From: an uncultured Eubacteriales bacterium
Lineage (GTDB): Bacteria; Acidobacteriota; Aminicenantia; Aminicenantales; Saccharicenantaceae
Assembly (NCBI GenBank): GCA_964458655.1
Contig: CAYWJT010000002.1
Location: forward strand, 13,299 to 77,298
Direction: 5' to 3'
Length of the DNA stretch: 64,000 nucleotides
Under the pieces are notes generated by a model that was not told the DNA's origin, made no database searches, and saw only the letters and a list, made by a program, of their open reading frames with translations. Positions within the stretch are counted from its first letter, which is position 1. Each line of letters opens with the position of its first letter. Position numbers and translations under genes: made by a program. This document shows positions 62 through 51,890 of the stretch, piece by piece.

Positions 62-1333
62 CTAACTTTCTCTATACCTGGCCTGAGATGAAGACCCGGC
101 TTCCCCAAGTTTAGCTCCGTTCCTGTAATCCAGGTTCAGCACTTTCTGCATGATCAATGAAACCGCCCCCATCACCGCGGCTTTGAGCCCGAAAGTGGCC
201 GGCAATATCTCAACTTCCTTGCTTATTCTGTTCAGCGACCTGGCTTTTACGGTATTCCGGACGGCGTCAAAAAGGATATCGCCCGCTTCGGTTACTCCGC
301 CTCCGATTACAACAGCTTCTGGGTTGAAAAGGTTTATCAAAGCCGAAATCCCAATGCCAAGGTATTCAGCGGCCCGGCGAAAAACGTTCCAGGCCACGAC
401 ATCTCCTTTCTTAGCCGCCTCGGCCACCATTTCAGCGGTCACGTCATCGGGAACACCGTTGCACATATCGAAGAGAATGCTTTTAGCGCCGCTTTCCAGC
501 TCCGAACGGGCAGCCCGGGCGATGCCGCTGCCGGAAGCCAGCGCTTCCAAACAGCCGCAATTCCCACAATAGCACTGAACTCTGCTGTCTTTCTCCAGCG
601 TGATATGCCCGAATTCGCCGGACATGCCCTTGGTCCCGAGAAGGGGCTGGCCATTAATGATGATCCCTGCCCCTATCCCGTACCCGACGTTGACGCAAAT
701 GAAATTCTTGTACTTTCTCCCAACCCCATAACAAAGTTCCCCGAGAGCCATCACCCTGGTGACATTATCAAAGAAGACGGGGATATCCGTCTTTTGAGCC
801 AGGTAGCCGGTTATGTCCACGTCATGCCAGTGGAAATTGGGCGAGAACTCGACAATATTCCTTTTATTGTTGATCAGGCCGGCTACGGCCATGCCCACGC
901 CGCACAAACGATCCCGTTTTTCCCCCAGTCGAGTTTTCAGTTTCTCGATAACTTCAAAAGTCCTGTCCATGACGCTGTAAAAGCCCTCGTCCACACCCGT
1001 TCGGACCTTCTCCTCCGAGATAATTTCAGCCTCAAGATTCGCTAGAACGCCGTATATGTTCGTCGTCCCAAGGTCGATACCGATTATGAAATTGTTATTC
1101 GGGCGGAACTTGAGAAGATTCGGTTTCCTCCCCCCGTTGGAAGAACCTATGCCGACCTCTTCTACCAAGCCCTCCCCGATCAGGTCATCGACTATTCTGG
1201 AGACCGTGGGGGCGCTCAGTCCGCTTATCTTGGAGATCTCGGCGCGAGAGATAGAGGGATTGTCCCGGATGAGTTTCAACACCCTCCTGGTATTCAACTT
1301 GAGGATGTACTTGGCGCTGGCTCCTGGCGACAT
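62..1333 (-). CDS. ROK-family transcriptional regulator (NagC/XylR-like)
   Basis: N-terminal winged HTH (ISRAEISKISGLSAPTVSRIVDDL), then a ROK sugar-kinase fold with the zinc motif HITL...CYCGNCGCLE. The ATG at 1333 is preceded by AAGGAGAG. The ORF-track start at 1372 is a TTG. It is a paralog of the 16372-17643 regulator. Confidence 0.85.
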   Translation of the reverse strand: MSPGASAKYILKLNTRRVLKLIRDNPSISRAEISKISGLSAPTVSRIVDDLIGEGLVEEVGIGSSNGGRKPNLLKFRPNNNFIIGIDLGTTNIYGVLANLEAEIISEEKVRTGVDEGFYSVMDRTFEVIEKLKTRLGEKRDRLCGVGMAVAGLINNKRNIVEFSPNFHWHDVDITGYLAQKTDIPVFFDNVTRVMALGELCYGVGRKYKNFICVNVGYGIGAGIIINGQPLLGTKGMSGEFGHITLEKDSRVQCYCGNCGCLEALASGSGIARAARSELESGAKSILFDMCNGVPDDVTAEMVAEAAKKGDVVAWNVFRRAAEYLGIGISALINLFNPEAVVIGGGVTEAGDILFDAVRNTVKARSLNRISKEVEILPATFGLKAAVMGAVSLIMQKVLNLDYRNGAKLGEAGSSSQARYRES

Positions 1334-1508
1334 TGCATCTCTCCTTACTACCTGTTCATTATAAACCAACAATAAGCGTCTTGTTTCCCATGACTAGAAT
1401 AGCTCATATCGGCCGGCCGTGGCCCTGGCGCTATTCGTCCCCTGATTCCAGACGCCGGCCGCATCGCTGCCTTTCCCTTCCTGGAGGCTACGATAATATA
1501 ATAGTTTG

Positions 1509-3062
1509 TCACTTTCTTTCAAAGGCGCTCCTTCCCTCCCGCATATAGCGATCCAGCAGATCCCTAAGCCGGTCAACAACTTCAGCGTGCTTTTCATATA
1601 GGTCCTTTTGTTCATAGGGGTCTTCTTTCAAGTTGTAGAGTTGGCCTGGCGTTCCTGGCCGGGGAAGAAGCCCTTCGGGCGGCATCCAGCCTCCGGAGGT
1701 CTTGTTGTCCAGAATAAGCTTCCACTCTCCCTGGCGGATGGCAAAAGTGCCGTTTTCTGAATGGGACACGATGGCTTCTCTGATGGGCCCTTGGCCCCTC
1801 TCCCCCAGAAGGGCCGGGGAGATATCGTAACTGTCCGGCCCGTCTTCAGGGGACAATGCCGCATCGGTGATGGAGGCAAAAGTGGCCATCATGTCGGACA
1901 GGCAAATCGGTTCGTCGCATACTCTGCCGGCCTTGACTTTTCTCGGCCAGCGAACGATGAAAGGAACGCGGTGGCCGCCTTCCCAGATGTGCGTCTTGTA
2001 ACCCCGGAGGAGGCCCGCCGACTTATGGCCCTTTATTCCGGGATGGGGCCCGTTATCGCTGGCGAAAATCAGCACAGTGTCGTCGCTAATCCCCAAGGAG
2101 TCCAAGGCCTTCATCATTTCCCCCAGGCAGTAATCGGCGAGAACCACAAGATCGCCCCGTGGGCCGTCTCCGCTTTTTCCCTTAACGAAATCAGGGGGCA
2201 GCCAGGGAGTATGAGGTGAAGACAAACAGAGCATGACAAAAAAGGGCTGCGTCGGCGCCGCCATTACGCTGCGCTGCATAAAGGCGATCGCCTCCCGGGT
2301 AAAAACAAGGTCCACTTCCTCAAGTTTAAAGCCGGCAGCCGCCCAGCCTGGCCGGGGGCTCCCCTCCTCGCCGCGGCTCATGTCATAGGATTCGGAGATT
2401 TGCCGACTGGGAATTTCCCTGACCCTGTCGTCTTCAATATAAGTGAACGGGCCGTCGATGGTCGAACAGGCCGCCGTAAATACGGCATGATCAAAGCCGT
2501 GATCGATCGGCCCACCCCTGACCGGCTTGGAAAAATCCACGTTCATGCCGGTCTCAGGCTTCGCATCCTGCCAGGATCCTTTCAACATCCTTTCGGCGTC
2601 TTTCCAGGTGGGAGTGAAGCCGTTCATTCTGGTCCAATTAAGGCCAAGATGCCACTTGCCGAACATGCCGCTTCTATATCCCCTGTTCTTTAGCAGGCTG
2701 GCCAATGTCTTCCGCCCGGGTTCGATCAGAGTCGGAGTATAACCGCCGACGACCCCTCTCTTCAGCCAGGTGCGCCAACAGTATCTTCCCGTCAGGAGGC
2801 TGTAGCGAGTGGGCGTGCAGACGGCCGATGGGGAATGAGCATCGGTGAATCGCACGCCTTCGCGGGAGAGTCGGTCCGCATTTGGCGTTGGAATGGGAGA
2901 ATCCGGGTTGTAGCACCCCAGATCGCCGTAGCCCAGGTCATCGGCCAATATCATGATTATGTTGGGACGCCCTTGCCCGATGAGACCGGAAATGCTTCGA
3001 CCTGCGACCAACATTGACGACGCGCCCGCAAAGACGGTGCCGATAAACCTGCGCCTTTTCAT
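1509..3062 (-). CDS. Formylglycine-dependent sulfatase (arylsulfatase family), Tat-secreted
   Basis: Twin-arginine signal MKRRRFIGTVFAGASSMLVAGRS. Sulfatase signature CTPTRYSLLTGRY (C-x-P-x-R) and N-terminal metal-site motif ILADDLGYGDLG. The ATG at 3062 lies 15 nt after the upstream anSME stop; the track start at 3107 is a TTG. Confidence 0.9.
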   Translation of the reverse strand: MKRRRFIGTVFAGASSMLVAGRSISGLIGQGRPNIIMILADDLGYGDLGCYNPDSPIPTPNADRLSREGVRFTDAHSPSAVCTPTRYSLLTGRYCWRTWLKRGVVGGYTPTLIEPGRKTLASLLKNRGYRSGMFGKWHLGLNWTRMNGFTPTWKDAERMLKGSWQDAKPETGMNVDFSKPVRGGPIDHGFDHAVFTAACSTIDGPFTYIEDDRVREIPSRQISESYDMSRGEEGSPRPGWAAAGFKLEEVDLVFTREAIAFMQRSVMAAPTQPFFVMLCLSSPHTPWLPPDFVKGKSGDGPRGDLVVLADYCLGEMMKALDSLGISDDTVLIFASDNGPHPGIKGHKSAGLLRGYKTHIWEGGHRVPFIVRWPRKVKAGRVCDEPICLSDMMATFASITDAALSPEDGPDSYDISPALLGERGQGPIREAIVSHSENGTFAIRQGEWKLILDNKTSGGWMPPEGLLPRPGTPGQLYNLKEDPYEQKDLYEKHAEVVDRLRDLLDRYMREGRSAFERK

Positions 3063-3076
3063 ATGACCGCCGTTCT

Positions 3077-4240
3077 CTAATACCTCTGGCTTTGCATTTG
3101 CTTCCAAAATGACGCCAATCTTCTCAAATGCTCGTCCGCATGCTCGAAAAACATCCTATAGGAAGTGCAAAAAAGGCTCACCTTACTGTCCTTTGAGTTC
3201 AGCTGTCGCTCTTTGGGACAGCCTCCCCAGCAATGGCTGAGCCAGGGGCAGCCCTGGCATGTCTCCGGCCACACGGATTTCATTTCGCCGAAAGATCTTT
3301 GCGGGCCGGAGTTGAGCAGGTCGATCATCTTCGCGGACATGATATTGCCTAACCTCAAGCGCGGTTCGACATAGAAATCGCAGGGGAAAACGTCGCCGCT
3401 GTGTTCTACGACAAGATAATCGCCGCATTCCCGACGCAGATTGCAGTCCGGCGGTTCAAGGTTGACGTAGGAATAGAAAACCGAATCGAAATAACGAATG
3501 AATATGGAAGGCAGCCCATCGACAAAGTCGCTCCGCCAAAGGTCGAATATCTTGACGAGGAAGTCACCGTAAGCATCAGGAGACGGAGAAAACGGGTCCT
3601 TTTTATCGAGCCTCGGCAGACCTTCATCGAAGCACGGGATAAACTGCATGTAGGTAAAGCCGAGGTTCTTATGGAATTCATAAATTTCCTCCGGGAACCT
3701 GACCGAATAATCGTTGACAACGGTCAATACGTTCACCTCTACTCCACTGTCGATCAGCATCTTGGCCTTGTCTACGACTCTTTCCCAGGAGCCCAGCCCG
3801 CCGGGAAGCTTTCGATAGCGATCGTGGATGTGTTTCGGGCCGTCAAGGGACAGGCCCACCAAGAACCCATTATCCCTCAAGAAGTCAGCCCATTTCTGGT
3901 CGATAAGAAGGCCGTTCGTCTGGAAAGCGTTCCGGACGGTTTTCCCCCGGCGGTTTCTCTTTTGTAAGTCGACCGCCGTTTGAAAGAACTCGAGGCCAGC
4001 CAGGGTAGGCTCGCCGCCCTGCCAGGCGAACGAAATAGCTTCCCCACATTGAGCCAATGCCTGGCTTATCATCTCTTCAAGGATTTCCTTTTTCATCCTG
4101 CGGGCCGAACTCTCCGGAAAAATGGAGCGTTTCCCCCGATAGAAACAATAGGAACAAACCTGGTTGCAATCCGGCCCGACCGGCTTGACCAGGATGGAGC
4201 CTAATGGTCTCTTGGATGCGACGCGTTCCAAATGGCTCAT
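3077..4240 (-). CDS. Anaerobic sulfatase-maturating enzyme (radical SAM/SPASM, anSME)
   Basis: LVKPVGPDCNQVCSYCFY radical-SAM CxxxCxxC right after the likely ATG at 4240. C-terminal SPASM cysteine cluster (CQGCPWLSHCWGGCPKER). It sits immediately upstream of a Cys-type sulfatase. The track start at 4417 is a TTG and adds about 59 aa not seen in anSMEs. Confidence 0.85.
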   Translation of the reverse strand: MSHLERVASKRPLGSILVKPVGPDCNQVCSYCFYRGKRSIFPESSARRMKKEILEEMISQALAQCGEAISFAWQGGEPTLAGLEFFQTAVDLQKRNRRGKTVRNAFQTNGLLIDQKWADFLRDNGFLVGLSLDGPKHIHDRYRKLPGGLGSWERVVDKAKMLIDSGVEVNVLTVVNDYSVRFPEEIYEFHKNLGFTYMQFIPCFDEGLPRLDKKDPFSPSPDAYGDFLVKIFDLWRSDFVDGLPSIFIRYFDSVFYSYVNLEPPDCNLRRECGDYLVVEHSGDVFPCDFYVEPRLRLGNIMSAKMIDLLNSGPQRSFGEMKSVWPETCQGCPWLSHCWGGCPKERQLNSKDSKVSLFCTSYRMFFEHADEHLRRLASFWKQMQSQRY

Positions 4241-4547
4241 GGGGATGATCGGGCCGCTAACTCGTCTCCAATCATACAAGCGAAAAATAAAGGGCTGTCC
4301 ATTCTCGTCGACCGCGTTACCTTTGGCGGCATCGATCCATGATTCGCGGGCGCTGAGCGCCCGCAACGCCTTTTCCGCGTTTCCTGCTTTCTTTGTTTGG
4401 GAAATAACAGGGCGCAATAATTAAATAATGAAATAAACTTATATCTGTCAATGCTTTTTTTCAAAATAGCGCAAGTTTACAGCCATATTCTCTCGGCCTT
4501 AGTATATACGGTCTCTCTTATAAGTTAAGCAAAAAGGTTTATTTCGC

Positions 4548-4576
4548 TTGACTTTGCTCGAATATTACTTAAATTA
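4548..4576 (+). promoter_or_regulatory. Candidate promoter in the AT-rich divergent region upstream of 4609 (TTGACT-N16-TAAATT)
   Basis: TTGACT at 4548-4553 and TAAATT at 4570-4575. Weak -10. Confidence 0.25.
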
Positions 4577-4608
4577 AGAAAATATACGGCGCGATGGAGA
4601 GGAAAAGC

Positions 4609-6483
4609 ATGCTGAAGGGAATTAGCTTTTGCTTGCCTTTAACGTTCTTGCTCATCCCCGCTTTCGCTCAATGGCCCAGGATCCGGATGATATCCCTCTT
4701 TAAAATACCCAAGCTCACCGGCGTCAAGCTGGGTTGCCTCGGCCTCCTATTGTTCACGGCCAATATGGGCTGCTATCAGAATTCAAAACAGGCCGTAGTG
4801 CCTTACGAACCGGAGGCTTTCGTTCCCCGGATCTGGAAATCGGAGCCGCCTGACGGCTGCCCGTTCGAACCTTCCAAGGATATAGTGGGGATCGCTTTCA
4901 CTGGAAGATATGCCACTTACACCGACGCCGACACCTGGTATCCTGCCTGGGCCGCCGACGGGAACATGTACAGCGGCTGGACGGACGGAGAAATAGGAAA
5001 GGAAAGCTGTCATTCTTCGGGCGGCAACAGGGCGCGCACCGGCAACGCGAAGATCATCGGTGACGACCCCTTGAATCTGGTCATCCAGTCTCTGGGCGTT
5101 CAGCCGGCTTCGGCCCTGCCTTACGGCGGCCGCTATCCGAGCGCCAACCTTGTGTATAAAGGCGTCTGGTACTATGGGACTTACTGCATAGACTTCGATT
5201 TCACCAAACCCGAATATCCAGATGAATACAGCTGGGCCATTTGCGGCCCGGTACCAGGCTTCAGGGTCTCTACCGACTACGGGAAGACCTGGATTCCCAG
5301 CCCGCTCTCGCCGGAAAATCCGCTTTTCCCGGAGTCCGGCAAAAACGGCCGACAGGTGAAAATGGGCACGCCTCACTTTGTCGATTTCGGTCGCGAACTG
5401 GAATACTCCCCGGATGGCAAAGCTTACCTCGTAGGGCACGGAGCCCTGGATAACGACCCGACTCCCCGGGTAGCCAATAATAGCTGGATCGCAGGCGACG
5501 CCGTTTACCTGGCGCGTGTGACGCCAAGCCCAAAAAATATCAACGATCCCAAAGCTTATGAGTTCTTTTCCGGGTTCGATTCCGCCAACAAGCCTATCTG
5601 GAGCAAGGATTTTACGGACATAAAGCCTTTGCTGGTCTGGGACGATCACATGGGTTGCACGACCATTACCTATCATGCTCCATTAAGGAAGTATCTGATG
5701 TGTATCACCGACGGCTGGCCGGGGGTTCGGAACATGAATTCTTATGTTCTCGAAGCCGACCAGCTGACGGGGCCTTATCGAATGGTGGCCTATATGAGGG
5801 ACTTCGGCCCCCAGGGTTATTTTCTCAATTTCCCGTCGAAATTCATCCGCCCTGACCGTCAGACGGTCTGGCTCTCTTATTCGGCCAACTTCCATAAGGA
5901 CTACTTCGCCAACCGGGCCATCGCCGATCCCCTCGGCAGCCGTTACGCCTGGTGCTTGCAGGAAGTCAAGCTTCTGGATGAAAGGACTCTCAATTCATTG
6001 CCTGAAACGCAGCAAAAAGATCCCATTAAGAGCGGCAATAATATTGCGCTCCGGGCGCAGGTCAGCGTTTCTTCGGTCCAGGACAAAAGCAAACCCATGA
6101 CCGAAGTCCCGCAATTCTTCGGGGAGGGGGCTGTGGACGGAGTTGTCGAATACAGCGATGACGTCAACCCGCGCGAATGGAGGAGCCAGGAACGTTCCAC
6201 AGCTATGATCCGTCTCAGTTGGGACCGACCTGAAACCGTCTGCCGGGTCTGGCTTTTTGACCTGCCCAACTCGAAAGACCAGGTTTTATCCGGGCTGCTG
6301 GTCTTCAGCGATGGAAGCGCCATAAGGGTCGGCGACCTGCCCAACGAGGGTAGGTCTGCCCGCGAAATAGCCTTCTCCGCCAAGAAAATAACCTGGCTGG
6401 CCTTCATCATAGATTCTGTGTCACGGGAAACCGGGAACGCCGGGCTGGCCGAAATCGCCGTCTTTAGGACTAAAGATAATTAA
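4609..6483 (+). CDS. Hypothetical secreted protein (possible beta-propeller glycosidase-like N-terminus, beta-sandwich C-terminal domain ending GLAEIAVF)
   Basis: Signal peptide MLKGISFCLPLTFLLIPAFAQ. The ATG at 4609 is preceded by GGAGAGG; a possible second lipoprotein-like start lies near MISLF. No family recognised with confidence. Confidence 0.5.
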   Translation: MLKGISFCLPLTFLLIPAFAQWPRIRMISLFKIPKLTGVKLGCLGLLLFTANMGCYQNSKQAVVPYEPEAFVPRIWKSEPPDGCPFEPSKDIVGIAFTGRYATYTDADTWYPAWAADGNMYSGWTDGEIGKESCHSSGGNRARTGNAKIIGDDPLNLVIQSLGVQPASALPYGGRYPSANLVYKGVWYYGTYCIDFDFTKPEYPDEYSWAICGPVPGFRVSTDYGKTWIPSPLSPENPLFPESGKNGRQVKMGTPHFVDFGRELEYSPDGKAYLVGHGALDNDPTPRVANNSWIAGDAVYLARVTPSPKNINDPKAYEFFSGFDSANKPIWSKDFTDIKPLLVWDDHMGCTTITYHAPLRKYLMCITDGWPGVRNMNSYVLEADQLTGPYRMVAYMRDFGPQGYFLNFPSKFIRPDRQTVWLSYSANFHKDYFANRAIADPLGSRYAWCLQEVKLLDERTLNSLPETQQKDPIKSGNNIALRAQVSVSSVQDKSKPMTEVPQFFGEGAVDGVVEYSDDVNPREWRSQERSTAMIRLSWDRPETVCRVWLFDLPNSKDQVLSGLLVFSDGSAIRVGDLPNEGRSAREIAFSAKKITWLAFIIDSVSRETGNAGLAEIAVFRTKDN

Positions 6484-6490
6484 GGTCCGC

Positions 6491-6510
6491 GGGCCGAGCA
6501 TAAACGGCCC
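6491..6510. terminator. Short GC hairpin GGGCCG-N8-CGGCCC between convergent genes (4609-6483 and 6538-8190)
   Basis: 6-bp stem in the 54-bp convergent intergenic gap. No U-tract. Confidence 0.3.
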
Positions 6511-6537
6511 TGAACCACGCCTAGGCCGCTAACAGCC

Positions 6538-11286: not shown

Positions 11287-11308
11287 TCCCCAGCCGATGG
11301 AGAGAATA

Positions 11309-12274: not shown

Positions 12275-12309
12275 CGTCCACGGCCCCCGGAGGGGAAAGG
12301 AGTCCCGAT

Positions 12310-27526: not shown

Positions 27527-27531
27527 AGGCC

Positions 27532-43275: not shown

Positions 43276-46127
43276 CAGGCTCCCGGAAGATGACCCTGAC
43301 GCTCTTCGCGGCCGCCCTCCTGGCCCTCGCGGCTTGCGGGCCGGAAGGCTCATCCGGATCCCGGCCGGCCCCCGAGGGGGAATGCCTGTCGGAAAAGCTG
43401 TTCTTCAACCCCCCGCAGTCGGCCCGGCCGAGCGTTCTATGGGCCTGGCTCAACGGCTTCGTCGACCGCGACCAGCTGACCCGGGAGCTGGAGGAGCTGA
43501 AGGCCAAAGGGTTCGGGGGAGCCATAATCTGGGACGTGGGCAGCCTCCGCGACCCGAAAAAGATCATCCCGGCCGGGCCCGCCTTCCTCGGCCCGGAATC
43601 TGTGGCCAGCATCTCCCACGCGATCGACGTGGCCGACCGCCTCGGACTCAGGCTGGGCCTGTTCGCCTCGAGCAGTTGGAACGCGGGAGGCTCCTGGATC
43701 GAACCCGAAAACGCCAGCAGGAGGCTGCTGTGTAGGGAGATCAAAGCCCATGGGCCGGGGCGCATCCGGACGATAGTCCCGCTCCCCGAGGGTGTGACCG
43801 ACCGCCGGAAGGACATCGCCGTCCTGGCCGTCGCCGCGGGCCGCCCAACGATGGACATCTCGCGATATGTGGACCGCGAGGGACGCTTGGACTGGGTGGC
43901 GCCGGCCGGCGAATGGCGGGTCATGCGCTTCGTCGCCAGCAATACGGGGCAAACCCTCGAATGCCCGAGCCCGAACTCCGACGGCCTGATCATCGACCAC
44001 CTGAGCCGAGAGGCCGCGAGAGTCCATATCACACATATCCTCGACCGGATCCTGAGCGCTCGGAACGCCCTCGACGCGCTCGACACGCTCATGCTCGACA
44101 GCTACGAAGTCGCTGAGGCAGTCGATTGGACGGACGATTTCATCGACGCTTTTCGGAAGCGGCACGGCTACGACCCGGTGCCCTACCTGCCCGCGCTGTT
44201 CGACCCCACGGTGCCTGACGCCGGGGTCGCCGAGCGCTTCCTTTATGATTACCGGAAGACGGTCAGCGACCTGATCATCGACAACCATTTCCGCACGGTC
44301 CGGGAGCTGCTGAACAAGCGGGGGTTGCGCCTCCTGGCCGAAGCGGGGCACGGCGGATCGGCCCGCGTGGACGCCCTCAAGGCGTTGGGCTCGGCCGATA
44401 TCCCGATGGGGGAGTTCTGGAACCACCAGCGGTTCTGGGTGGTCAAGGAAGCCGCCAGCGCCGCCCATATCTACGGCAAGCGCATCGTCGACGCCGAGGC
44501 CCTGACCGGCTGGCGCAACTGGCAGGAGGGGCCCGCGGAATACAAACGGCGGTTCGATATCGCCCTTTGCGCCGGGCTGAACCATCCCACTTTCCATACC
44601 TTCACTCACAATCCGCCGGCCGCGGGCCGGCCCGGCTTTGTCTACCACGCCGGCGAGCACTTCAACGTCAACACCACCTGGTGGGGCCAGGCCGGGCCGC
44701 TGATCGAGTATATGTCCCGCTGCGATTACCTTCTCCAGCAGGGCCTCTTCGTGGCCGACGTCGCTTTCTATTACGGCGACCAGGCGCCCAACCTCGTGCC
44801 GGCGCGGCGGATCGATCCCGACATCGAGCCCATCTATCCGGACACGGCCTGCCTGCACTGCGGCAAACCCAAGCCGGTCCAGACCTCATCGTTGGACCTT
44901 GGGTATGATCATGATTACGTCAATTCCGAAGTCATTTTGGAGAGGATGAGGGTGTCGGGCGGGCGCATCGCTCTCCCGGACGGGTTGAGCTACGCCCTGC
45001 TCGTCCTGCCGGACCGGGAGGACATGCCTCTTGCGGTCCTGCGCAAGCTCGGCGAGCTCGTAGGGGCCGGAGCGACGGTCGTCGGGCGGAAGCCCGTCCG
45101 CTGCCCAAGCCTGGCCGGCTTCCCCGCCTGCGACGACAAGGTCAGGGCCCTGGCCGACCGGATCTGGGGGCCATGCGACGGCGCCGCGGTCAAGGAACAC
45201 CGCTACGGGAAAGGCCGCGTAGTCTGGGGTGTGCCTCTCAACGACCTCCTGCGCGACCGCGGGCTGGGGCCCGACTTCCAAGCGCTCGGCGTTGCCAACG
45301 CCGACCGGCACGTAGATTTCATACACCGGGCCACCGACCGCGAGGACATCTACTTCGTCTCCAACAGCGCCGGGACCGCTGAAACCTTCGAGGCCGTGTT
45401 CCGGGTTAGGGAGGGGCGGACGCCGGAGTTCTGGGATCCCGCCTCGGGGACGATCGTCCCGTGCCGGTCGTTCGCCCGGGTCGAGGGCGGCTGCCAGCTG
45501 ACCTTGGACATTCCCGCCTATGGCTCCATCTTCGTAGTCTTCCGTGAGACGCCGACTCCGGCGGCCTTTCTGTCCCCAGAACCCTTGAAGGCGGATGACC
45601 GGCCGGCCATCACCGTCTCCGGGCCCTGGACGGTCCGCTTCCCGCCGGGCTGGGGCGCGCCGGAGTCCGTCCTTTGGAACGGCCTCGTCAGCTGGACCGA
45701 AGCGGACGACCCGGGCATCCGCTATTTCTCCGGGACGGCGGCATATACGGCGGAATTCGACTTCGGCGAGCAGCGGCTCCAGGAGGGGCGAAGCTGGCTC
45801 CTCGACCTCGGGAAGCTCCGGGAAGTCGCCGAAGTGGCTCTCAACGGCCGAGATCTCGGCATCCTTTGGAAGGAGCCCTTTCAAGCGGATATCACGGCCG
45901 CCCTGAGAGCGGGCCGGAACATCCTCGAGGTCAGAGTCACGAACCTCTGGAACAACCGCCTCGTGGGCGACCTCCTGGATCCGGCCCATGGACCGTTCGC
46001 GCGCACCAACATGGTCCTCAAGACGCGGGACCTGATCCCGTCCGGGCTGTTCGGGCCGGTGACCGTCCGGCGAGCCGCCCGACGGTCGTCCGGCGACTCG
46101 GCTCCCGCGCCCGGATCGGCCCATTGA
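43272..46127 (+). CDS. Large glycoside hydrolase with C-terminal GH2-type beta-sandwich, lipoprotein (paralog 2 of 36867-39860)
   Basis: The ATG at 43272 overlaps the upstream stop. Lipoprotein-like signal MTGSRKMTLTLFAAALLALAAC. Region-by-region similarity to 36867-39860 (WAWLNGFVDRDQLTRELEELKAKGFGGAIIWDV; C-terminal VALNGRDLGILWKEPFQADITAALRAGRNILEVRVTNLWNNRL). Confidence 0.6.
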   Translation: MTGSRKMTLTLFAAALLALAACGPEGSSGSRPAPEGECLSEKLFFNPPQSARPSVLWAWLNGFVDRDQLTRELEELKAKGFGGAIIWDVGSLRDPKKIIPAGPAFLGPESVASISHAIDVADRLGLRLGLFASSSWNAGGSWIEPENASRRLLCREIKAHGPGRIRTIVPLPEGVTDRRKDIAVLAVAAGRPTMDISRYVDREGRLDWVAPAGEWRVMRFVASNTGQTLECPSPNSDGLIIDHLSREAARVHITHILDRILSARNALDALDTLMLDSYEVAEAVDWTDDFIDAFRKRHGYDPVPYLPALFDPTVPDAGVAERFLYDYRKTVSDLIIDNHFRTVRELLNKRGLRLLAEAGHGGSARVDALKALGSADIPMGEFWNHQRFWVVKEAASAAHIYGKRIVDAEALTGWRNWQEGPAEYKRRFDIALCAGLNHPTFHTFTHNPPAAGRPGFVYHAGEHFNVNTTWWGQAGPLIEYMSRCDYLLQQGLFVADVAFYYGDQAPNLVPARRIDPDIEPIYPDTACLHCGKPKPVQTSSLDLGYDHDYVNSEVILERMRVSGGRIALPDGLSYALLVLPDREDMPLAVLRKLGELVGAGATVVGRKPVRCPSLAGFPACDDKVRALADRIWGPCDGAAVKEHRYGKGRVVWGVPLNDLLRDRGLGPDFQALGVANADRHVDFIHRATDREDIYFVSNSAGTAETFEAVFRVREGRTPEFWDPASGTIVPCRSFARVEGGCQLTLDIPAYGSIFVVFRETPTPAAFLSPEPLKADDRPAITVSGPWTVRFPPGWGAPESVLWNGLVSWTEADDPGIRYFSGTAAYTAEFDFGEQRLQEGRSWLLDLGKLREVAEVALNGRDLGILWKEPFQADITAALRAGRNILEVRVTNLWNNRLVGDLLDPAHGPFARTNMVLKTRDLIPSGLFGPVTVRRAARRSSGDSAPAPGSAH

Positions 46128-46163
46128 GATATCTCGGCGCGGCCGAGAGAAAGGAGAATGGAC

Positions 46164-47705
46164 ATGAGACATCCACGATCGATCCTGGCCTTGGCTCTAA
46201 TGCTGTTTTCCGCCGCCGGCGTCGCCCTGGTCGGCCGACCCGTGGGCCAGGGCGGCCAGGCGGGCCCGGCGGCCCGCCGGACGGTCTCTCCGTCGTGGGA
46301 ATCTCTCAGCAGGATCCCCACGCCGCAGTGGCTGCGTGACGGGAAGTTCGGCATCTACACCCACTGGGGCGTTTACGCGGTGCCGGCGGTGGGCCCGAAC
46401 GGCACGTGGTATTCCCATAACATCTACATGAACCCGAACTCGCCGGAGCGGGTCTACCACGAAGCGACCTATGGGCCGCTCGAGAAGTTCGGCTACAAGG
46501 ACTTCATCCCGATGTTCACGGGGGCCAAGTTCAACGCCGACGAATGGGCTGACTTGTTCCGCAGGGCCGGGGCTCGCTTCGCCGGCCCCGTAGCCGAACA
46601 TCATGACGGCTTTTCGATGTGGGACACGGCCTATTCGGATTGGAACGCGGCCAAAATGGGCCCAAAACGGGACATCGTCGGCGAGCTTTCGACGGCCATC
46701 AAGAAGGCCGGGTTGAAGTTCGTCACCGCCTTCCACCACGCCGAGAACTGGTACTTCTTCCCGGTCTGGGACAAGCGCTACGACTGCGGGGACCCTCGTT
46801 ACTCCGGCCTCTACGGGCCCATCCATGAGAAGGGCGCACAGCCCGACAAGGCTTTCTTGGACCGCTGGGCGGCCAAGGTCCGGGAGGTTATCGACAAGTA
46901 TCGGCCGGATTTCCTATGGTTCGACTTCGGCCTGGGTTTCGTGCCGGAGGCCTATAAGAAGGAGCTCCTCGCTTACTTCTTCAACGCTGCGGCCGCGGAG
47001 GGCCGGGAGGTCGTGGTCAGCTACAAAGACCATGATCTGCCGCCGGGCGTCGGGATCAACGACCTCGAGCTCGGACAGGAACGGGAGCTGACCTACCACG
47101 AATGGATCACGGATTCCTCGGTGGACAACCAGGGCGCGTGGGGCTATGTCCGGGGAGCGGGCTTCAAGACGACCGAGAACCTCATCCATAATCTCATGGA
47201 CCGGATCAGCAAGAACGGTTACCTCCTTCTCAACGTCGGCCCGAAGCCGGACGGCACGATCCCTGAAGAGGCCCGGGAGATACTGCTCGGGCTGGGCCGG
47301 TGGCTCGAGGTGAACGGCGAGGCTGTTTACGGCACCAGGCCCTGGGTCGTCGCCGGCGAGGGCCCGACCAAGCTCGACGCCGACGGGGCCTTCAACGAGC
47401 GGGACACCCTTCGTTACAAGGCCCAGGACATCCGCTTCACGGCCAAGGGAGATGTCCTTTACGCCACGGCGCTCGGCTGGCCCGGCGAGAGGATCCTCAT
47501 CAAGAGCTTGGCCGGCGGTCCCAACCCGGGGCGGAACTTCTGGAACGGCCTGTACCCGTCCGAGATCGTCTCGGTCAGCATGCTCGGCGACGGCCGGCCC
47601 CTGAAATGGGAGATGACCAAAGAGGGCATGACGATCGAAACGCCCCCGACGAGGCCGTGCGCCCATGCCTATGTATTCAAGATCGTCAGGCGCGCGCCAT
47701 TTTGA
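46164..47705 (+). CDS. Glycoside hydrolase family 29 alpha-L-fucosidase, secreted
   Basis: WLRDGKFGIYTHWGVYAVPA...KFNADEWADLFRRAGARFAGPVAEHHDGFSMWDT matches the GH29 N-terminal catalytic region. AAGGAG lies 7 nt before the ATG at 46164 (an ATG at 46158 is also in frame). Signal peptide. Confidence 0.85.
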   Translation: MRHPRSILALALMLFSAAGVALVGRPVGQGGQAGPAARRTVSPSWESLSRIPTPQWLRDGKFGIYTHWGVYAVPAVGPNGTWYSHNIYMNPNSPERVYHEATYGPLEKFGYKDFIPMFTGAKFNADEWADLFRRAGARFAGPVAEHHDGFSMWDTAYSDWNAAKMGPKRDIVGELSTAIKKAGLKFVTAFHHAENWYFFPVWDKRYDCGDPRYSGLYGPIHEKGAQPDKAFLDRWAAKVREVIDKYRPDFLWFDFGLGFVPEAYKKELLAYFFNAAAAEGREVVVSYKDHDLPPGVGINDLELGQERELTYHEWITDSSVDNQGAWGYVRGAGFKTTENLIHNLMDRISKNGYLLLNVGPKPDGTIPEEAREILLGLGRWLEVNGEAVYGTRPWVVAGEGPTKLDADGAFNERDTLRYKAQDIRFTAKGDVLYATALGWPGERILIKSLAGGPNPGRNFWNGLYPSEIVSVSMLGDGRPLKWEMTKEGMTIETPPTRPCAHAYVFKIVRRAPF

Positions 47706-48333: not shown

Positions 48334-50256
48334 TCATCGTTGGCCCTCCTTCAACGGAGCTTGTGGGGAAGGCACATACCCTTTATCCATCAGGCTGATG
48401 AAACCCAACAAGGCTCCCCAATGGTAGAACTCGTCGCTCCAGCTCCCGGTGTCGTCGCCACGCCCGGTCTCGGCGTTGTAGTTCTCGTACACATGGTGCT
48501 CGCCGAGCCAGGATCTCAAGAGCAGGTTCTCGGACTTTTCGGCCATGTCTTTCCGGGCTTCGGGCAGATCGTAATTCCGCAGGCCCAGATAGACCAGGAA
48601 ATTCATCGGGGCCCAGATCCTCCCTCTCCAATAGAGATTGTCCTTGAAGGCCGGATCGTTCCGGGCGATGGAAGGCATGATGAACTCGCCCCAGAATTCC
48701 CTAGGGTTGTAAAAGTGCTCTTCGATCATCCGTTCGGCCTGCTTCTGATCCGGGACCTTGGCCAGCAGGGGGTAAAACAGGGTCGGAGAGAGCCTGTGGC
48801 TGAATTCTCCCGTCAGGAGGTCCCTGTTCAGGTAGAGGCCGGTCTCCTCATCCCAGAGGGTTTCAAGCTTCGCCGAATACCTTGCCGCCCTTTCCCCCAA
48901 CTCCCGTTCCTCCTCCGTTCGTCCCAGGACTGCGGCTATCTCAGCCAGGCTCCGGCAATCATTGATGTAGAGGCTCATGAGGCCCACGTCGGCCAGCAGC
49001 ATCTGATGGGAGATCCTGTCGTAGACGGCATCATCGTACATCGGAGAATTATCGAGACCCGACTCCCACTTGGCTCCTTGGAGGTTCCCGATGCCCCTAT
49101 AGGACCGGTGGTAAGTCTCTCCATAGTCATAAGGGTCGGAACCATATGACAAATAGCCGTCAATTTCGCGGTTTTCGGCCCACCAGCGGTTCCATCTCAG
49201 CAATTTGTCGAAGACCTCCTCGAGAAACCACTTGTCTCGATATTTCCTGTAGATCTCCTTGATCACAAGAGCGCCGACCGGCGGCTGGGAGCGGTCCAGG
49301 CTCTTGATCCCCGGCTGGCTGTTGTTCGGGACGAAGCCCTTGTCCGTGATCTCGCTGGTGATGGCGATCGCGTTGGCGTAGGCCAGTTCTTGGCAATCCA
49401 GGGAGAGCATATAGGCCGCGAAGTAGGTGTCCCACTCGAACAGGACCCAACCCCCGGCGCTCCAGGTCCGGCTGACCGGCGAAATGACCCTGTCGTTGCC
49501 GGGATCGTAGATCGTGTTCCAGGCCAGTACGGTCCGCAGGGCCTCGTAGGCGTCCGGCGCCTCGGGATACGTGGACCTGCGGGAAGCGCATTGAACTTCG
49601 GCCTTGTCGATGACCTCGCCGATCTCCTCCGCCGTCTTGGAGGGATCCGTCGTTATCGCGATGGGCTCAGCCAACGAAAACCTCAGGCCCTTCTCCGTCG
49701 CCAGGTACCGGCCCGAGGCGACGGCCAGCTCCGTCGGGCCGGAGCGGGTTTCGGCGCGGATCGTGCCGTCTTCTATCCATATCTTTCCAGGTCTGCCCCA
49801 TAGCATCTGCGGGACCAGCACGAGGGCGTCGCCGGGCGATTGCTCCAGGGGGCTTATCCACAAGAAAAACCCGTTGTCGACGGCGGCGCTCCGGACTCGG
49901 ACGCGGATGCCTTGCCATTCGACCTCCACCTCGGTGTAGGAACCATCCCACGCATGAGGCCCGGGAATGACCCGTTCTTTGGCGCCGTTATCGCTCCTGC
50001 CTGGCAGGGCTTCTTTCAGCGTGTCCCCTGTTCGATGGCTGGCCAATTGGAGGCTGATCGAAAAACCTTCGGGCAACAGAACATGCGACAAGACACTCCG
50101 GGTATCCCAGGTGTTCCAGCCCTGGGAAAGCCGGGCCTTCATGGCGGCCCATTGCCTTCCGGATGCGTCTTTGGGCCCGGAGGATCCCATTCCGTTGCAG
50201 GAAACAAGAAGGGAGGTCAACGATAGGATCGCCAAGAAGGATGGAGTGGTTTTCAT
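48334..50256 (-). CDS. (alpha/alpha)6-barrel glycoside hydrolase, GH63/GH37-clan-like, lipoprotein
   Basis: Lipoprotein signal ILSLTSLLVSCNG. The motif GAKWESGLDNSPMYD resembles the ESG(M/W)D(N/F)S(P)R acid-residue region of GH63/GH37 enzymes. Family assignment is tentative. Confidence 0.5.
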   Translation of the reverse strand: MKTTPSFLAILSLTSLLVSCNGMGSSGPKDASGRQWAAMKARLSQGWNTWDTRSVLSHVLLPEGFSISLQLASHRTGDTLKEALPGRSDNGAKERVIPGPHAWDGSYTEVEVEWQGIRVRVRSAAVDNGFFLWISPLEQSPGDALVLVPQMLWGRPGKIWIEDGTIRAETRSGPTELAVASGRYLATEKGLRFSLAEPIAITTDPSKTAEEIGEVIDKAEVQCASRRSTYPEAPDAYEALRTVLAWNTIYDPGNDRVISPVSRTWSAGGWVLFEWDTYFAAYMLSLDCQELAYANAIAITSEITDKGFVPNNSQPGIKSLDRSQPPVGALVIKEIYRKYRDKWFLEEVFDKLLRWNRWWAENREIDGYLSYGSDPYDYGETYHRSYRGIGNLQGAKWESGLDNSPMYDDAVYDRISHQMLLADVGLMSLYINDCRSLAEIAAVLGRTEEERELGERAARYSAKLETLWDEETGLYLNRDLLTGEFSHRLSPTLFYPLLAKVPDQKQAERMIEEHFYNPREFWGEFIMPSIARNDPAFKDNLYWRGRIWAPMNFLVYLGLRNYDLPEARKDMAEKSENLLLRSWLGEHHVYENYNAETGRGDDTGSWSDEFYHWGALLGFISLMDKGYVPSPQAPLKEGQR

Positions 50257-50318
50257 AACTGTAGAAATAGTACAGTATCATGGAGATTTTCAATCACTTT
50301 CTTGGCAGGCTGAATGTC

Positions 50319-51890
50319 CTATTCTGCCCCGAGCTCCGCTCTCAGGCGGCCCAGCTCTTTTTGCAGCGATCCTTTGACGCCGGCATAATCCGGGCTGCCA
50401 TAAACATTGTGGAGTTCTTCCGGGTCTCTTTCCAGGTCGAACAATTCCCAGCAATCGATATCGTCATAATAATGGATCAGCTTATGACGCCGGGTGCGCA
50501 CCCCATAATGCTTCCGGACGGAATGCACCGCGGGATATTCATAATAATGGTAATAGAATGACCGGCGCCAGTCCGGGATCTTTTTCCCCTGGAGGAGCCC
50601 CTTGAACGACCGCCCCTGCATGAAGGCCGGGACGGGAATGCCGGCCAGGTCCAGAAGCGTCGGAGCCAGATCAACGTTAAGCACCATGTGCTCTTTATCG
50701 ACTCTTTTCCTCTCGATCCCATCCGGGAACCTGAGGATCAAGGGGGTCCGCAAGCTGGGTTCATACATGAAACGCTTGTCGAACCAGCCGTGTTCGCCAA
50801 GGAAAAAGCCCTGGTCTGAAGTGAAGACCACCACCGTATTATCCGCCAGGCCTTCTTCATCCAGGAATTCAAGCAGGCGCCGCATGCCGATATCCACCGA
50901 GGCCAGGCAGCGTAGGTAATCCTTAATATAACGCTGGTATTTCCACACGGCCAGCTCTTGGCCTTCAGGTTTCTTCCTCCTGAACTCCTCGTTGTCTTCC
51001 CTGTAGGCTTTATCCCAGGCCTCTTTTTGTTCCGCGGTCAATCGGTTGTAAGCTGACAGCCAGTAATCCAGCCCGACCTTCTCCTGTTCGGTAAGATCGG
51101 AAGTCCCCAACGGAAAGAGCTTAAGGTCATAAGCCAGATAAGCATGGTTGGCGATCGTCATTTCCTGAAGCCTCGCCGCCGCGCACCTGGTCGCATAATC
51201 ATCAAAATAAGTTTCCGGCACCGGCAAGTCTTCGTGACGATAAAGATCGAGGAATTCCAGGGCCGGCATCCAGTTTCGATGCGGCGCCTTATGGTTCAGG
51301 AAAAGCAGAAAAGGTTTTTGCTTATCCCGATCCTTCAGCCAGGCCAGGGATTTCTCGGTAAGCAGGTCGGTAACATATCCGTATTCCCGGTATTTCCGTC
51401 CTTTCTCGATGAAATCAGGGTTATAATACTGGCCCTGGTCCGGAAGGATGCAATAATGATCGAAGCCGAGCGGGGCCGCTTTAAGATGCCATTTGCCTAT
51501 CAGGGCCGTCTGGTAGTCCGCTCCCTTGAACAACAAAGCAAAGCTGTTCGCCTGAGAGCTCATTTCTATGCTGTTATCCACCACTCCGTGCCGATGGCTG
51601 TACTGACCGGTGAGGATGGAAGCCCGGCTGGGAGCGCAGATGGCATTAGTGCTGAAGCTCAGCTCAAAGCGCACCCCTTCTTCCGCCAGCCGGTCGATGT
51701 GCGGGGTCTTAATCAGCCTGTCGTCGTAGCAGCCGACGGCCCTGCATGCCTGGTCATCGGTCAGGATGAAGATGACATTGGGCCTGACCGGTTGTCTGCG
51801 GCAGCAAATGGAAGATACGGCCAGAGGCAAAGCCAGGCTTCCCTGAGCCGCAAGTTTTATGAACTCTTTTCTGGTCAGCTTATCGGCCAT
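50319..51890 (-). CDS. Formylglycine-dependent sulfatase (canonical C-A-P-S-R), secreted
   Basis: Signal or Tat-like N-terminus. ILTDDQACRAVG metal motif. NAICAPSRASILTGQYSHRHG signature. Confidence 0.9.
   Translation of the reverse strand: MADKLTRKEFIKLAAQGSLALPLAVSSICCRRQPVRPNVIFILTDDQACRAVGCYDDRLIKTPHIDRLAEEGVRFELSFSTNAICAPSRASILTGQYSHRHGVVDNSIEMSSQANSFALLFKGADYQTALIGKWHLKAAPLGFDHYCILPDQGQYYNPDFIEKGRKYREYGYVTDLLTEKSLAWLKDRDKQKPFLLFLNHKAPHRNWMPALEFLDLYRHEDLPVPETYFDDYATRCAAARLQEMTIANHAYLAYDLKLFPLGTSDLTEQEKVGLDYWLSAYNRLTAEQKEAWDKAYREDNEEFRRKKPEGQELAVWKYQRYIKDYLRCLASVDIGMRRLLEFLDEEGLADNTVVVFTSDQGFFLGEHGWFDKRFMYEPSLRTPLILRFPDGIERKRVDKEHMVLNVDLAPTLLDLAGIPVPAFMQGRSFKGLLQGKKIPDWRRSFYYHYYEYPAVHSVRKHYGVRTRRHKLIHYYDDIDCWELFDLERDPEELHNVYGSPDYAGVKGSLQKELGRLRAELGAE

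Follow-up and report, generated by a model that had tools for sequence, protein, structure and literature searches.

Sulfated glycans have usually been discussed in connection with marine algae and animal hosts. In Verrucomicrobiota, clusters resembling polysaccharide utilisation loci (PULs) are directed at sulfated methyl pentoses and combine glycoside hydrolases (GHs) of families GH29/GH95 and GH78/GH106 with S1 sulfatases (including S1_15/S1_25), peptidases and symporters, in the absence of SusC/SusD (Orellana et al. 2021, PMC8857213). The strictly anaerobic, marine Kiritimatiellales/Pontiella carry hundreds of sulfatases together with rhamnosidases/fucosidases, also without SusCD, and their peptidases have been proposed to open access to proteoglycans (PMC6388578, PMC7356697). 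These are the closest described relatives of the locus presented here, which lies on a stretch of 64,000 nucleotides (the window) of contig CAYWJT010000002.1 from an uncultured bacterium of the Candidatus Aminicenantes. Aminicenantes have been described in published work as anaerobic, fermentative and saccharolytic, and no report tying them to the use of sulfated glycans was found in the literature searched.

Our favoured reading, which we hold with moderate confidence, is that the region is a supra-operonic island of Candidatus Aminicenantes for the utilisation of a sulfated rhamnose/fucose glycan, composed of at least four recurring sub-modules. Sub-module 1 is proposed to serve uptake and fucose release and contains a ROK regulator, a barrel resembling TonB-dependent receptors (TBDR), a sodium/solute symporter (SSS, of the SSF family), a zinc- and an iron-dependent alcohol dehydrogenase (Zn-ADH and Fe-ADH), GH95, a DUF3863 protein and the peptidase DPP-IV. 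Sub-module 2, on the minus strand, is proposed to handle rhamnose sulfate and contains GH106a, an S1_25-like sulfatase (sulfatase B), the LamG-domain protein LamG925 and a URO-D-like protein. Sub-module 3, which is divergently transcribed, would be formed by the protein UNK1062, GH106b and GH29. Sub-module 4 is probably a variable, laterally acquired accessory set for desulfation, with an S1_15-like sulfatase (A), an anaerobic sulfatase-maturating enzyme (anSME) and the second ROK regulator (ROK1), as well as an S1_11-like sulfatase (C). A preliminary description of this DNA had already proposed an island for the utilisation of a sulfated, deoxyhexose-bearing glycan, and the gene inventory together with the conserved synteny bears it out. 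Open reading frames (ORFs) were called with the guidance of GC content at third codon positions (GC3), since the window GC of 0.62–0.68 gives rise to many shadow ORFs. All ORFs (38/38) were scanned against Pfam and the key ones also against NCBIfam, and all window proteins were compared by tblastn with 37 fetched loci, in a synteny view spanning about 15 related metagenome-assembled genomes (MAGs); two of the loci, L031 and L032, represent the source contig itself or a copy nearly identical to it.

The clustering of these genes is not due to chance, because they are found together in many related MAGs as well. The 13 best genome matches of sulfatase B (71–84% identity) are overwhelmingly MAGs of Candidatus Aminicenantes/Acidobacteria, three being entered in the database as 'uncultured Eubacteriales' and a fourth as Myxococcales, and the related MAGs come from lake sediment, fen and digester. 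An Acidobacteria-like host in an anoxic niche, as suggested earlier, is therefore a reasonable assignment, the group to which these best relatives belong being anaerobic. Aminicenantota stand as a separate candidate phylum in NCBI; GTDB, as we take it, places Aminicenantes in Acidobacteriota.

Four units recur in shuffled order at 77–91% identity, so that the comparison of related MAGs proposed in the preliminary description reveals conserved, rearranging sub-modules. Their gene orders are (ROK-TBDR-)SSS-ZnADH-FeADH-GH95-DUF3863-(DUF7402)-DPPIV for unit 1, GH106a-SulfB(-LamG925-UROD) for unit 2 and UNK1062-GH106b(-GH29, or GH89 in L001) for unit 3, and unit 4 consists of extra sulfatases and anSME. 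Units 1–3 abut in L006/L012, L013, L014 and the source contig, while the UNK1062-GH106b pair is kept in L001, L003, L006, L010, L012 and L031. Orthologs of sulfatase B (71–84%) lie beside GH106a in eight MAGs where the locus reaches that far (L001, L002, L007, L009, L010, L013, L014 and L015), and wherever GH106a is present in these eight fetched Aminicenantes loci, plus L031 and L032, the distance between it and the S1_25-like gene is a few bp to ~40 bp. The URO-D-like orthologs (86–91%) are syntenic with sulfatase B and LamG925 (L001, L007, L009, L013, L015 and L031), and DPP-IV orthologs (81–88%) adjoin GH95/DUF3863 in eight loci, DPP-IV being present also in L035 and L037. Neither DPP-IV nor the URO-D-like protein looks at home in a glycan locus, but both belong to the members that are conserved most faithfully.

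The locus L036 matches the window order from the GWxTD/TPR proteins and M24 peptidase (~5 kb, 9148–13704) through LamG720, ROK2, TBDR, SSS and the ADHs to GH95. Because L036 repeats the window order there, the GWxTD/TPR and M24 genes, which have no visible glycan function, are regarded as syntenic neighbours and not as demonstrable parts of the system. LamG720 (13805–15967, minus strand; 720 aa, PF13385) is divergent from ROK2; in L012 and L036 its orthologs (78–85%) adjoin the SSS or the ROK unit, and distant homologs (33–40%) lie within the module in L019 and L037. ROK2 has an 88% ortholog at the same position in L036, and ROK1 is 68% identical to the ROK next to TBDR/SSS in L037, a Saccharicenans locus where ROK-TBDR-SSS-PfkB-FeADH-LamG-ZnADH-DPPIV stands alone. 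The combination of ROK regulation, SSS import and a TBDR-like barrel that had been pointed out earlier is thus kept in Aminicenantes (L036, L037). L036 carries TauE and FucU at the place that in the window is taken by an AT-rich gap of 404 bp (15968–16371). The window's own TauE/SafE-family anion permease (57458–58342, plus strand; PF01925), a possible regulon member, lies outside the region first described (62–51890), and its 72% ortholog is found with FucU between LamG720 and ROK2 in L036 (6929–8268). A TauE and aminotransferase pair also occurs near the UNK1062 homolog in Marinifilum (L005). In L003, unit 3 is surrounded by housekeeping genes, without the other units, and an 89% GH29 ortholog follows UNK1062-GH106b there. 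Orthologs of the DUF7402 protein (62–67%) are located between DUF3863 and DPP-IV in L013/L014, and an 81% ortholog of the GH63-like gene lies at the module edge in L001.

Three sulfatase genes are present in the window, as stated in the preliminary description, all on the minus strand and with PF00884 E values of 1e-45 to 2e-52; the sulfatase domain and the C/S-x-P/A-x-R active-site motif are present in 3/3, and all are of Cys type. Their subfamilies were assigned from the nearest PDB chains and not from SulfAtlas models, and the margin of this sequence-based placement is strong for sulfatases B and C and moderate for A. Sulfatase B (35355–36860; CAASR, Tat signal), the core member, is by sequence closest to the ulvan rhamnose-3-sulfate sulfatase (S1_25): the best match is 6HR5 at 5.8e-114 (385 bits), followed by the next one at 1.5e-59 (205 bits). 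Drawing on the specificities described for S1 subfamilies (PMC9096561; bioRxiv 10.1101/2021.07.23.453482), sulfatase B is predicted to target a 3-O-sulfated 6-deoxy-L-hexose. Sulfatase A (1509–3107; CTPTR, Tat-like signal RRRFIG) resembles S1_15 (Gal/GalNAc-6-sulfate) enzymes, its best matches being the GalNAc-6-O-sulfatase 6s20 (6.5e-71) and 9bas/9bau, labelled 'S1_15A/B' (243–203 bits for these three, against 169 for steryl-sulfatase). Sulfatase C (50319–51890; CAPSR) resembles S1_11 (GlcNAc-6-sulfate) enzymes and matches best the GlcNAc-6-sulfatase 5G2V (3.9e-154) and the mucin-desulfating sulfatase 7p24 (5.4e-151; 517/507 bits).

Sulfatase B lies 6 bp from GH106a (36867–39860, minus strand), a member of the alpha-L-rhamnosidase family. 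The two GH paralogs of ~1000 aa noted earlier, their family then unnamed, are both GH106; GH106a and GH106b (43272–46127, plus strand; lipoprotein-like signal) are 43% identical to each other and match PF17132 over their full length with 475 and 512.8 bits (cut-off 29), from which alpha-L-rhamnosidase-type activity is predicted. GH106b overlaps the UNK1062 stop codon by 4 nt and is followed by the GH29 alpha-L-fucosidase (46158–47705, plus strand; PF01120, 322.6 bits). With the GH95 of sub-module 1 (25058–27526, plus strand; signal peptide; PF22124, 531.7 bits), of the alpha-L-fucosidase/alpha-L-galactosidase family, the fucosidases of the window amount to one GH29 and one GH95. A GH63/MGH1-like glycosidase (48334–50256, minus strand; lipoprotein signal; PF22422, 176.9 bits) lies between GH29 and sulfatase C. 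Pfam thus agrees with the earlier listing of GH95, GH29, a GH63-like enzyme, an SSS symporter and two ROK regulators.

The dedicated maturase named in the preliminary description is a radical SAM/SPASM protein (3077–4417, minus strand; true start probably near 4240) scoring 394.8 bits with TIGR03942, above the equivalog cut-off of 349.45, with PF04055, PF13186 and the cluster motif CNQVCSYC. Twin-arginine-like signals are present on all three sulfatases, and Tat or Sec signals on sulfatases and GHs. Maturation by anSME in the cytoplasm followed by export would fit, because the sulfatases are of Cys type and carry these twin-arginine-like signals. The accessory genes (sulfatases A and C, anSME, ROK1, the DUF7402 gene and unk550) have GC3 values of 0.62–0.67 (0.66 for each of sulfatases A and C) as compared to 0.78–0.91 for the core. 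They occupy two patches with GC of ~0.54, one at 1–8190 with ROK1, sulfatase A, anSME, the DUF7402 gene and unk550, and the other at 50319–51890 with sulfatase C. Their counterparts in relatives are only 39–67% identical, sulfatase A being 44–67% identical to the relatives' copies and sulfatase C only 52% to the L001/L013 copy. The low GC3 and the low identity to the relatives' counterparts suggest that the accessory genes were probably acquired later, by lateral transfer. The DUF7402 gene (4594–6483, plus strand) encodes a secreted protein with a C-terminal PF24135 domain (112 bits), and no family was assigned to its N-terminal 485 aa.

The uptake genes of sub-module 1 are on the plus strand. 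The TBDR-like outer-membrane barrel (17779–20889; start probably 17857) is of acidobacterial type, with CarboxypepD_reg and PF25183 (118.6 bits), and its homologs are named TonB-dependent receptor, some of the more distant ones (34–63% identity) carrying PF07715 and/or PF00593. It is not of the SusC/RagA type (TIGR04056 19.3 bits against a cut-off of 368.25, the alignment being limited to the N-terminal CarboxypepD_reg), and the SusD families PF07980, PF12741, PF12771 and PF14322 were found in 0/38 ORFs. The region is not a Bacteroidota PUL, since the defining SusC/SusD features were tested for and are absent. The preliminary description was right on this absence and on the difference from canonical Bacteroidetes loci, a difference that is expected outside Bacteroidota and known in Verrucomicrobiota (PMC8857213).

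The symporter (21112–22737; SSF/SGLT type, PF00474 238 bits, TIGR00813 315 bits) is 61% identical to a Pontiella SSF protein adjoining FucU/Zn-ADH/GH95. The Zn-ADH (22769–23794; ADH_N and ADH_zinc_N), of the polyol-dehydrogenase family, has sorbitol dehydrogenase/ketose reductase as best PDB match and reaches no NCBIfam equivalog; its stop codon overlaps the start of the group III Fe-ADH (23791–24969; PF00465/PF25137), so that the adjacency of the two noted before is real. The attribution of the Fe-ADH to the FucO-like lactaldehyde reductases had to be given up, as it scores 238.8 bits with TIGR02638 (cut-off 523) and 215.8 with NF007911 (cut-off 537); its nearest structures are generic ADHs, and methanol dehydrogenase and 1,3-propanediol oxidoreductase also come ahead of FucO, which stands at about the eighth place. 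An interpretation of the ADH pair as FucO and a partner was rejected because the Fe-ADH is below both model cut-offs. The fucose link of the SSS/Zn-ADH/GH95 unit is supported by the FucU mutarotase adjoining the orthologous units in L036 and Pontiella L004. Downstream of GH95 are the DUF3863/DUF3864 protein (27523–28914; Tat-like signal; PF12979, 334 bits), which matches the uncharacterised protein PDB 3lm3, and the secreted DPP-IV/S9 peptidase (28929–31247; PF00930/PF00326), whose membership hints at a glycopeptide or proteoglycan as substrate. A DPP-IV/S9 peptidase accompanies Fe-ADH, Zn-ADH and a UNK1062 homolog in an Adiutricales MAG as well. A sulfoquinovose-type pathway (GH-D-like glycosidase, PfkB, Fe-ADH and TauE) was considered and dropped on indirect grounds: the relatives' mutarotase is of FucU/RbsD type, and no sulfo-sugar isomerase, aldolase or transaldolase was seen.

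UNK1062 (40087–43275, plus strand) is a secreted protein of 1062 aa. Its full-length sequence has no match in Pfam (E<=0.001), NCBIfam or PDB, and even at E<=1 Pfam has none for three segments that together comprise the N-terminal sandwich and residues 532–1062. The giant discoidin-domain protein of the preliminary description is probably this one; a large protein is indeed present, and Pfam finds no discoidin domain in this copy, faint F5/8-C matches being restricted to some homologs. The homologs are annotated as 'hypothetical'; those with 50–91% identity are labelled Aminicenantes, Acidobacteriota or Adiutricales where the source is named, and a distant branch of ~800 aa (~30% identity) occurs in Pontiella and Marinifilum, with other such homologs in SusC/SusD loci. 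This shorter branch starts at profile position ~221, hence without the N-terminal beta-sandwich of the Aminicenantes-type proteins. With 240 representative clusters out of 1.84 billion at E<=1e-30, the family is a small one. Some members are fused, for example P0032 (1706 aa) with PF07944-type (GH127-like) domains.

The AlphaFold model of UNK1062, for which 27 sequences were used, is confident (pLDDT 83.9, pTM 0.83). In it, a beta-sandwich at the N-terminus is followed by a (beta/alpha)8 barrel and a second sandwich, after which a helical linker leads to the C-terminal sandwich. GH36 alpha-galactosidases are the top Foldseek matches (1.6e-15), followed by GH97, GH101 and GH129, while the sequence profile matches the GH36 structure 3mi6 marginally (E 0.013 over 29 positions). 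Identity to clan GH-D (GH27, GH31, GH36) and to the related GH97/GH101/GH129 is 9–15%, and these clan comparators lack the additional helical linker and C-terminal beta-sandwich. In clan GH-D enzymes, the nucleophile and the acid/base are located on strands 4 and 6. In model and alignment of UNK1062, the invariant motifs FKxD, NHR and EDHG end barrel strands 4, 5 and 6, with K362-x-D364 and E463-D464 as invariant residues; D364 is therefore the putative nucleophile, and E463 or D464 the putative acid/base. Judged on the model, the barrel, its flanking sandwiches and the acidic residues on strands 4 and 6 agree with the clan GH-D fold, whereas the sequence falls outside GH36 and GH-D. It seems probable that UNK1062 is a retaining alpha-glycosidase of an undescribed family, its newness being set by Pfam, NCBIfam and PDB sequence.

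Genomic surroundings agree with a glycosidase role, because the homologs of UNK1062 sit among SusC/SusD, GH and sugar genes. The Marinifilum copy directly follows SusC/SusD and precedes GH97; a second SusCD locus has a homolog with two GH28 and GH115, and a third one with a sulfatase, a SASA esterase and GH3. In Pontiella, the homolog (29% identical) lies beside GH95, FucU, Zn-ADH and SSF, and in the Adiutricales (Desulfobacterota-affiliated) MAG it occurs together with DPP-IV, Fe-ADH and Zn-ADH.

LamG925 (32549–35326, minus strand; 896–925 aa, PF13385) is 100% identical to a protein encoded on a 77-kb JGI metagenome contig (3300037501), the source contig. It belongs to a widespread uncharacterised family of ~890 aa, whose representatives from Bacteroidales, Phycisphaerae and Verrucomicrobiota show 43–65% identity. 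Beyond the LamG domain, its alignment has numerous invariant Trp, Asp and Glu residues. A Foldseek search with its AlphaFold2 model (pLDDT 73.5) gave only clostridial-neurotoxin Hc (LamG jelly-roll) matches with TM ~0.19, and a profile search against PDB gave LamG or pentraxin domains only, so no catalytic fold could be assigned. The URO-D/MtaA-like protein (31268–32482, minus strand; PF01208, 78 bits) shows weak similarity to MtaA/CmuA and has no corrinoid protein nearby and no obvious glycan role; a demethylation of O-methylated deoxyhexoses by it is conjecture only. The four ORFs without a Pfam family at 0.001 still have none at E<=1.

Both ROK1 (62–1372, minus strand; PF00480, 236 bits) and ROK2 (16372–17643, plus strand; 207 bits) combine the ROK domain with an N-terminal winged helix-turn-helix (PF13412, HTH_24) and align over their full length with NagC below the equivalog cut-off, NagC being the best NCBIfam model of ROK1 at 243 bits; they are thus of the NagC/Mlc-like type. 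A search for intergenic palindromes identified a 17-bp AT-rich element, TTWMTTANMKYAAGAAA, at four places 5' of three units: TTACTTAAATTAAGAAA at 4565–4581 between the divergent anSME operon and DUF7402 gene, TTTATTACATTAAGAAA at 16047–16063 and TTTATTAGCGTAAGAAA at 16335–16351 upstream of ROK2 (the latter by 21 bp), and TTACTTAAAGCAAGAAA at 39997–40013 in the divergent GH106a/UNK1062 promoter region. The last copy is inside a block of ~55 bp conserved in six related loci, the flanks of which have diverged. When 3.4 kb of intergenic DNA is scored with a position weight matrix made from the relatives' sites only, the highest ranks go to the other window sites and to a site at 57305, which lies upstream of TauE. 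Scores as high came from region-wise shuffles in 1.9%, 0% and 0% of the 2000 trials, the test being a rough one. Similar sites are present at three places in Saccharicenans L037, upstream of TBDR, ROK and SSS. The recurring motif is suggestive, although not conclusive, of a common operator and co-regulation, and the NagC-like ROK proteins would be the obvious candidates for binding to it. A sigma-70 promoter/terminator scan of 15.9–32.6 kb was uninformative, terminators being fewer than in shuffles.

From these genes a working mechanism may be sketched. Oligosaccharides or glycopeptides of a sulfated heteroglycan, with alpha-L-rhamnose of 3-O-sulfated type and alpha-L-fucose, would pass the outer membrane via the TBDR-like barrel; this strain's version of the substrate may also bear 6-O-sulfated hexose or hexosamine groups, the presumed target of the S1_11/S1_15 sulfatases. 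The oxygen-sensitive radical-SAM maturase would make the formylglycine form of the sulfatases in the cytoplasm, and Tat export would be next. Exo-sulfatases and exo-glycosidases would then take turns, either in the periplasm or on the cell surface, the S1_25 enzyme acting before GH106, with GH95 and GH29 also taking part; the GH-D-like UNK1062 may handle an alpha-D-linked residue, and DPP-IV may trim the attached peptide. The freed deoxyhexoses would be imported by the symporter and processed by the ADH pair, to which relatives add FucU and a PfkB kinase, and the NagC-like ROK proteins would repress the units via the shared 17-bp AT-rich operator. As a speculation, cyanobacterial or microalgal sulfated exopolymers or microbial sulfated glycoconjugates could be the sources of the substrate.

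Several observations weigh against this reading of the region. S1_25 also includes SWF4, its other characterised enzyme, which takes the 3-O-sulfate off L-fucose (PMC9096561), and for this reason sulfatase B may act on fucose instead of rhamnose. Its homologs (45–51% identity) in MAGs of Flammeovirgaceae (L024), Bacteroidetes (L022) and Planctomycetaceae (L026) have transporters, a helicase and peptidases as neighbours, with no window-type or Pfam-annotated CAZyme among the neighbours tested, and hence genomic context leaves the specificity of sulfatase B unfixed. The Plug domain (PF07715) expected of the TonB-dependent receptor claimed earlier is at its expected position with 13.7 bits, under the cut-off of 23.9, so that the claim stands for the barrel and its homologs and is weaker for the plug. 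No canonical FucI/K/A or RhaA/B/D is present in the window, and LamG925, LamG720, the DUF7402 protein, unk550 and the DUF3863 protein are functionally blank. At the threshold used, the 17-bp motif was not found in L036, L006 and L012; it is AT-rich within AT-rich intergenic DNA, which the rough statistical test has to be read against. Finally, the sub-modules separate in some genomes (L003, L037), so their functional unity is not obligatory.

Of the other explanations, a locus for glycans of host type (mucin O-glycan, keratan sulfate or glycosaminoglycan-like) or for a bacterial sulfated glycosaminoglycan-like exopolymer, in which the S1_11 (6S-GlcNAc) and S1_15 (6S-Gal/GalNAc) sulfatases, the fucosidases and proline-specific peptidases would strip a sulfated glycoprotein, appears unlikely. 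The ~1e-150 matches of sulfatase C to GlcNAc-6- and mucin-desulfating sulfatases, that of sulfatase A to GalNAc-6-O-sulfatase, the conserved DPP-IV, the GH89 alpha-N-acetylglucosaminidase replacing GH29 in L001 and the sulfated glycosaminoglycan-like exopolymers produced by anaerobes, Pontiella among them (PMC7356697), speak in its favour, but sulfatases A and C are the least conserved and compositionally foreign ones, the conserved core being GH106, S1_25 and UNK1062. Pfam scans of the window ORFs found no sialidase, GH20, GH2, GH35, GH84 or GH101 domain, and S1_11 has many soil sequences without known substrates (bioRxiv 10.1101/2021.07.23.453482). The two GH106 genes are a further difficulty. 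To our knowledge, rhamnose is not a component of animal glycans. A fucoidan locus for brown-algal-type sulfated fucan, attacked by GH29/GH95 and fucan sulfatases, with a FucO-like Fe-ADH reducing the lactaldehyde formed from fucose, is very improbable, even though GH95 and GH29 are there, FucU adjoins the orthologous unit in relatives and S1_15 and S1_25 sulfatases have been reported in fucose-targeting clusters of Verrucomicrobiota (PMC8857213). Two GH106 genes flank the core, one directly adjoining the sulfatase whose nearest solved relative is a rhamnose-3-sulfate enzyme; GH29 and GH95 are single; the Fe-ADH fails the FucO model; and brown-algal fucoidan is presumably not to be expected in lake sediment, fen or digester. 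No endo-fucanase (GH107/GH168/GH174/GH187) was detected among the testable ORFs, with LamG720, unk550 and the DUF7402 N-terminus outside the structure comparison, and PDB sequence and profile searches with UNK1062 and LamG925 matched only the marginal GH36 and LamG domains and no other deposited enzyme. The fucan substrate of the preliminary description therefore keeps its fucose part, through the FucU neighbours, and loses fucoidan in particular, and the sulfatase-subfamily check that it had proposed comes out, for 2/3 sulfatases, as S1_11/S1_15-like and pointing away from fucan. The region is not demonstrably a fucoidan locus. Ulvan itself was rejected as substrate since no PL24/25/28/40 (ulvan lyase), GH105 or GH88 domain appeared in the Pfam scans.

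A core trimming rhamnose/fucose side chains of a plant or algal polymer of pectic type (rhamnogalacturonan II or I or arabinogalactan-like), to which the sulfatases would be unrelated neighbours or later add-ons, is quite unlikely. GH106 and GH95 are used on rhamnogalacturonan II by Bacteroides, a UNK1062 homolog sits in the SusCD locus with two GH28 and GH115, and UNK1062-GH106-GH29 has no sulfatase nearby in L003; set against this are the S1_25-like sulfatase next to GH106a in all fetched Aminicenantes loci that have GH106a, and the lack of GH28, GH78, GH105, GH43 and PL families in the window by Pfam. We give equally little credit to the idea that the region is not one functional locus and that independent small operons stand side by side on a CAZyme-rich stretch of chromosome. 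The solitary sub-modules of L003 and L037, the variable gene order among MAGs, the unrelated GWxTD/TPR and M24 genes in between and the two patches of different GC would suit it, but the sub-modules are re-joined in differing orders in L006, L012, L013, L014 and L031, the ADH pair, DPP-IV and UNK1062 are together even in the Desulfobacterota-affiliated MAG, and the 5' motif is common to the units. The sulfated rhamnose/fucose island thus remains our preferred reading.

Rfam and tRNA scans of the whole window gave no match. A minus-strand run with gaps of 10–60 bp (48334–55617) contains unk411, SDR, cupin and class I/II aminotransferase genes besides sulfatase C and the GH63-like gene; the end coordinate 51890 of the region first described splits this possible operon, and its upstream genes are not kept next to the GH63-like gene in L001. 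A PadR-family regulator and a HAAS-domain membrane protein follow on the plus strand (55936–57274), and a perfect palindrome, ATACTATATAGTAT, is situated at 55907, just upstream of the regulator gene. The segment 62520–64000 is probably foreign DNA; its GC falls sharply to 0.446 right after the stop codon of AspRS, and an ORF from ~62880 runs past the window end (>=373 aa, that is, at least 373) with no Pfam match at E<=1. The C-terminal stretch 'DIIAF...VVECT' of this ORF resembles, as judged by eye, a PD-(D/E)xK nuclease motif.

A conserved island of desulfation and rhamnosidase/fucosidase genes in this anaerobic lineage, which is uncultured and lives in sediments, fens, aquifers and digesters, points to a pool of sulfated, deoxyhexose-rich polymers and to their turnover in anoxic non-marine systems. 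For enzyme discovery it offers a clan GH-D-like family that is also present in Bacteroidota PULs, a widespread LamG family and a putative regulator-operator pair. A more far-reaching proposal, which we advance only tentatively, is that UNK1062 founds a GH family within a laterally mobile module (GH106, S1_25, LamG, URO-D-like protein and ADH/PfkB/FucU) for a chemically undefined sulfated rhamnose/fucose glycoconjugate of anoxic freshwater, subsurface and digester habitats, controlled by NagC-like ROK repressors at the 17-bp operator.

In comparison to the Verrucomicrobiota clusters (PMC8857213), the locus shares fucosidases, rhamnosidases, S1_15/S1_25 sulfatases, peptidases, symporters and the lack of SusC/SusD, but its host is an Aminicenantes bacterium with relatives from non-marine anoxic habitats, and it has a NagC-like ROK, an acidobacterial TBDR-like barrel, the Zn-ADH/Fe-ADH pair, the URO-D-like protein and UNK1062, with no bacterial microcompartment genes seen in it. 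Pontiella shares the UNK1062 homolog, GH95 and FucU, as well as a Zn-ADH and an SSF protein 56% and 61% identical to those of the window; unlike Pontiella, the present locus is a compact island with three sulfatases, and the UNK1062 homolog there is only distantly similar. As in the ulvan S1_25 system (6HR5), a rhamnosidase is paired with an S1_25-type sulfatase, although the rhamnosidase is GH106 and not GH78, is encoded by a separate gene and is not accompanied by the ulvan-degrading families. With Bacteroidota PULs the locus would share, as far as its genes tell, the logic of outer-membrane import followed by periplasmic exo-sulfatases and exo-glycosidases under co-regulation, and with the sulfated host-glycan PULs of B. 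thetaiotaomicron in particular the S1_11/S1_15-like enzymes and the need of anSME for sulfatase activity. It differs from them in having no SusD, a barrel other than SusC/RagA and ROK regulators in place of hybrid two-component systems (HTCS) or extracytoplasmic function (ECF)-sigma factors, and its sulfatases are of Cys type with Tat signals as compared to the Ser type of B. thetaiotaomicron (bioRxiv 10.1101/2021.07.23.453482). We regard the type of system as ordinary and its host as unusual; the newest content of the island lies in conserved proteins that are uncharacterised, namely UNK1062, LamG925, the URO-D-like protein and DUF3863.

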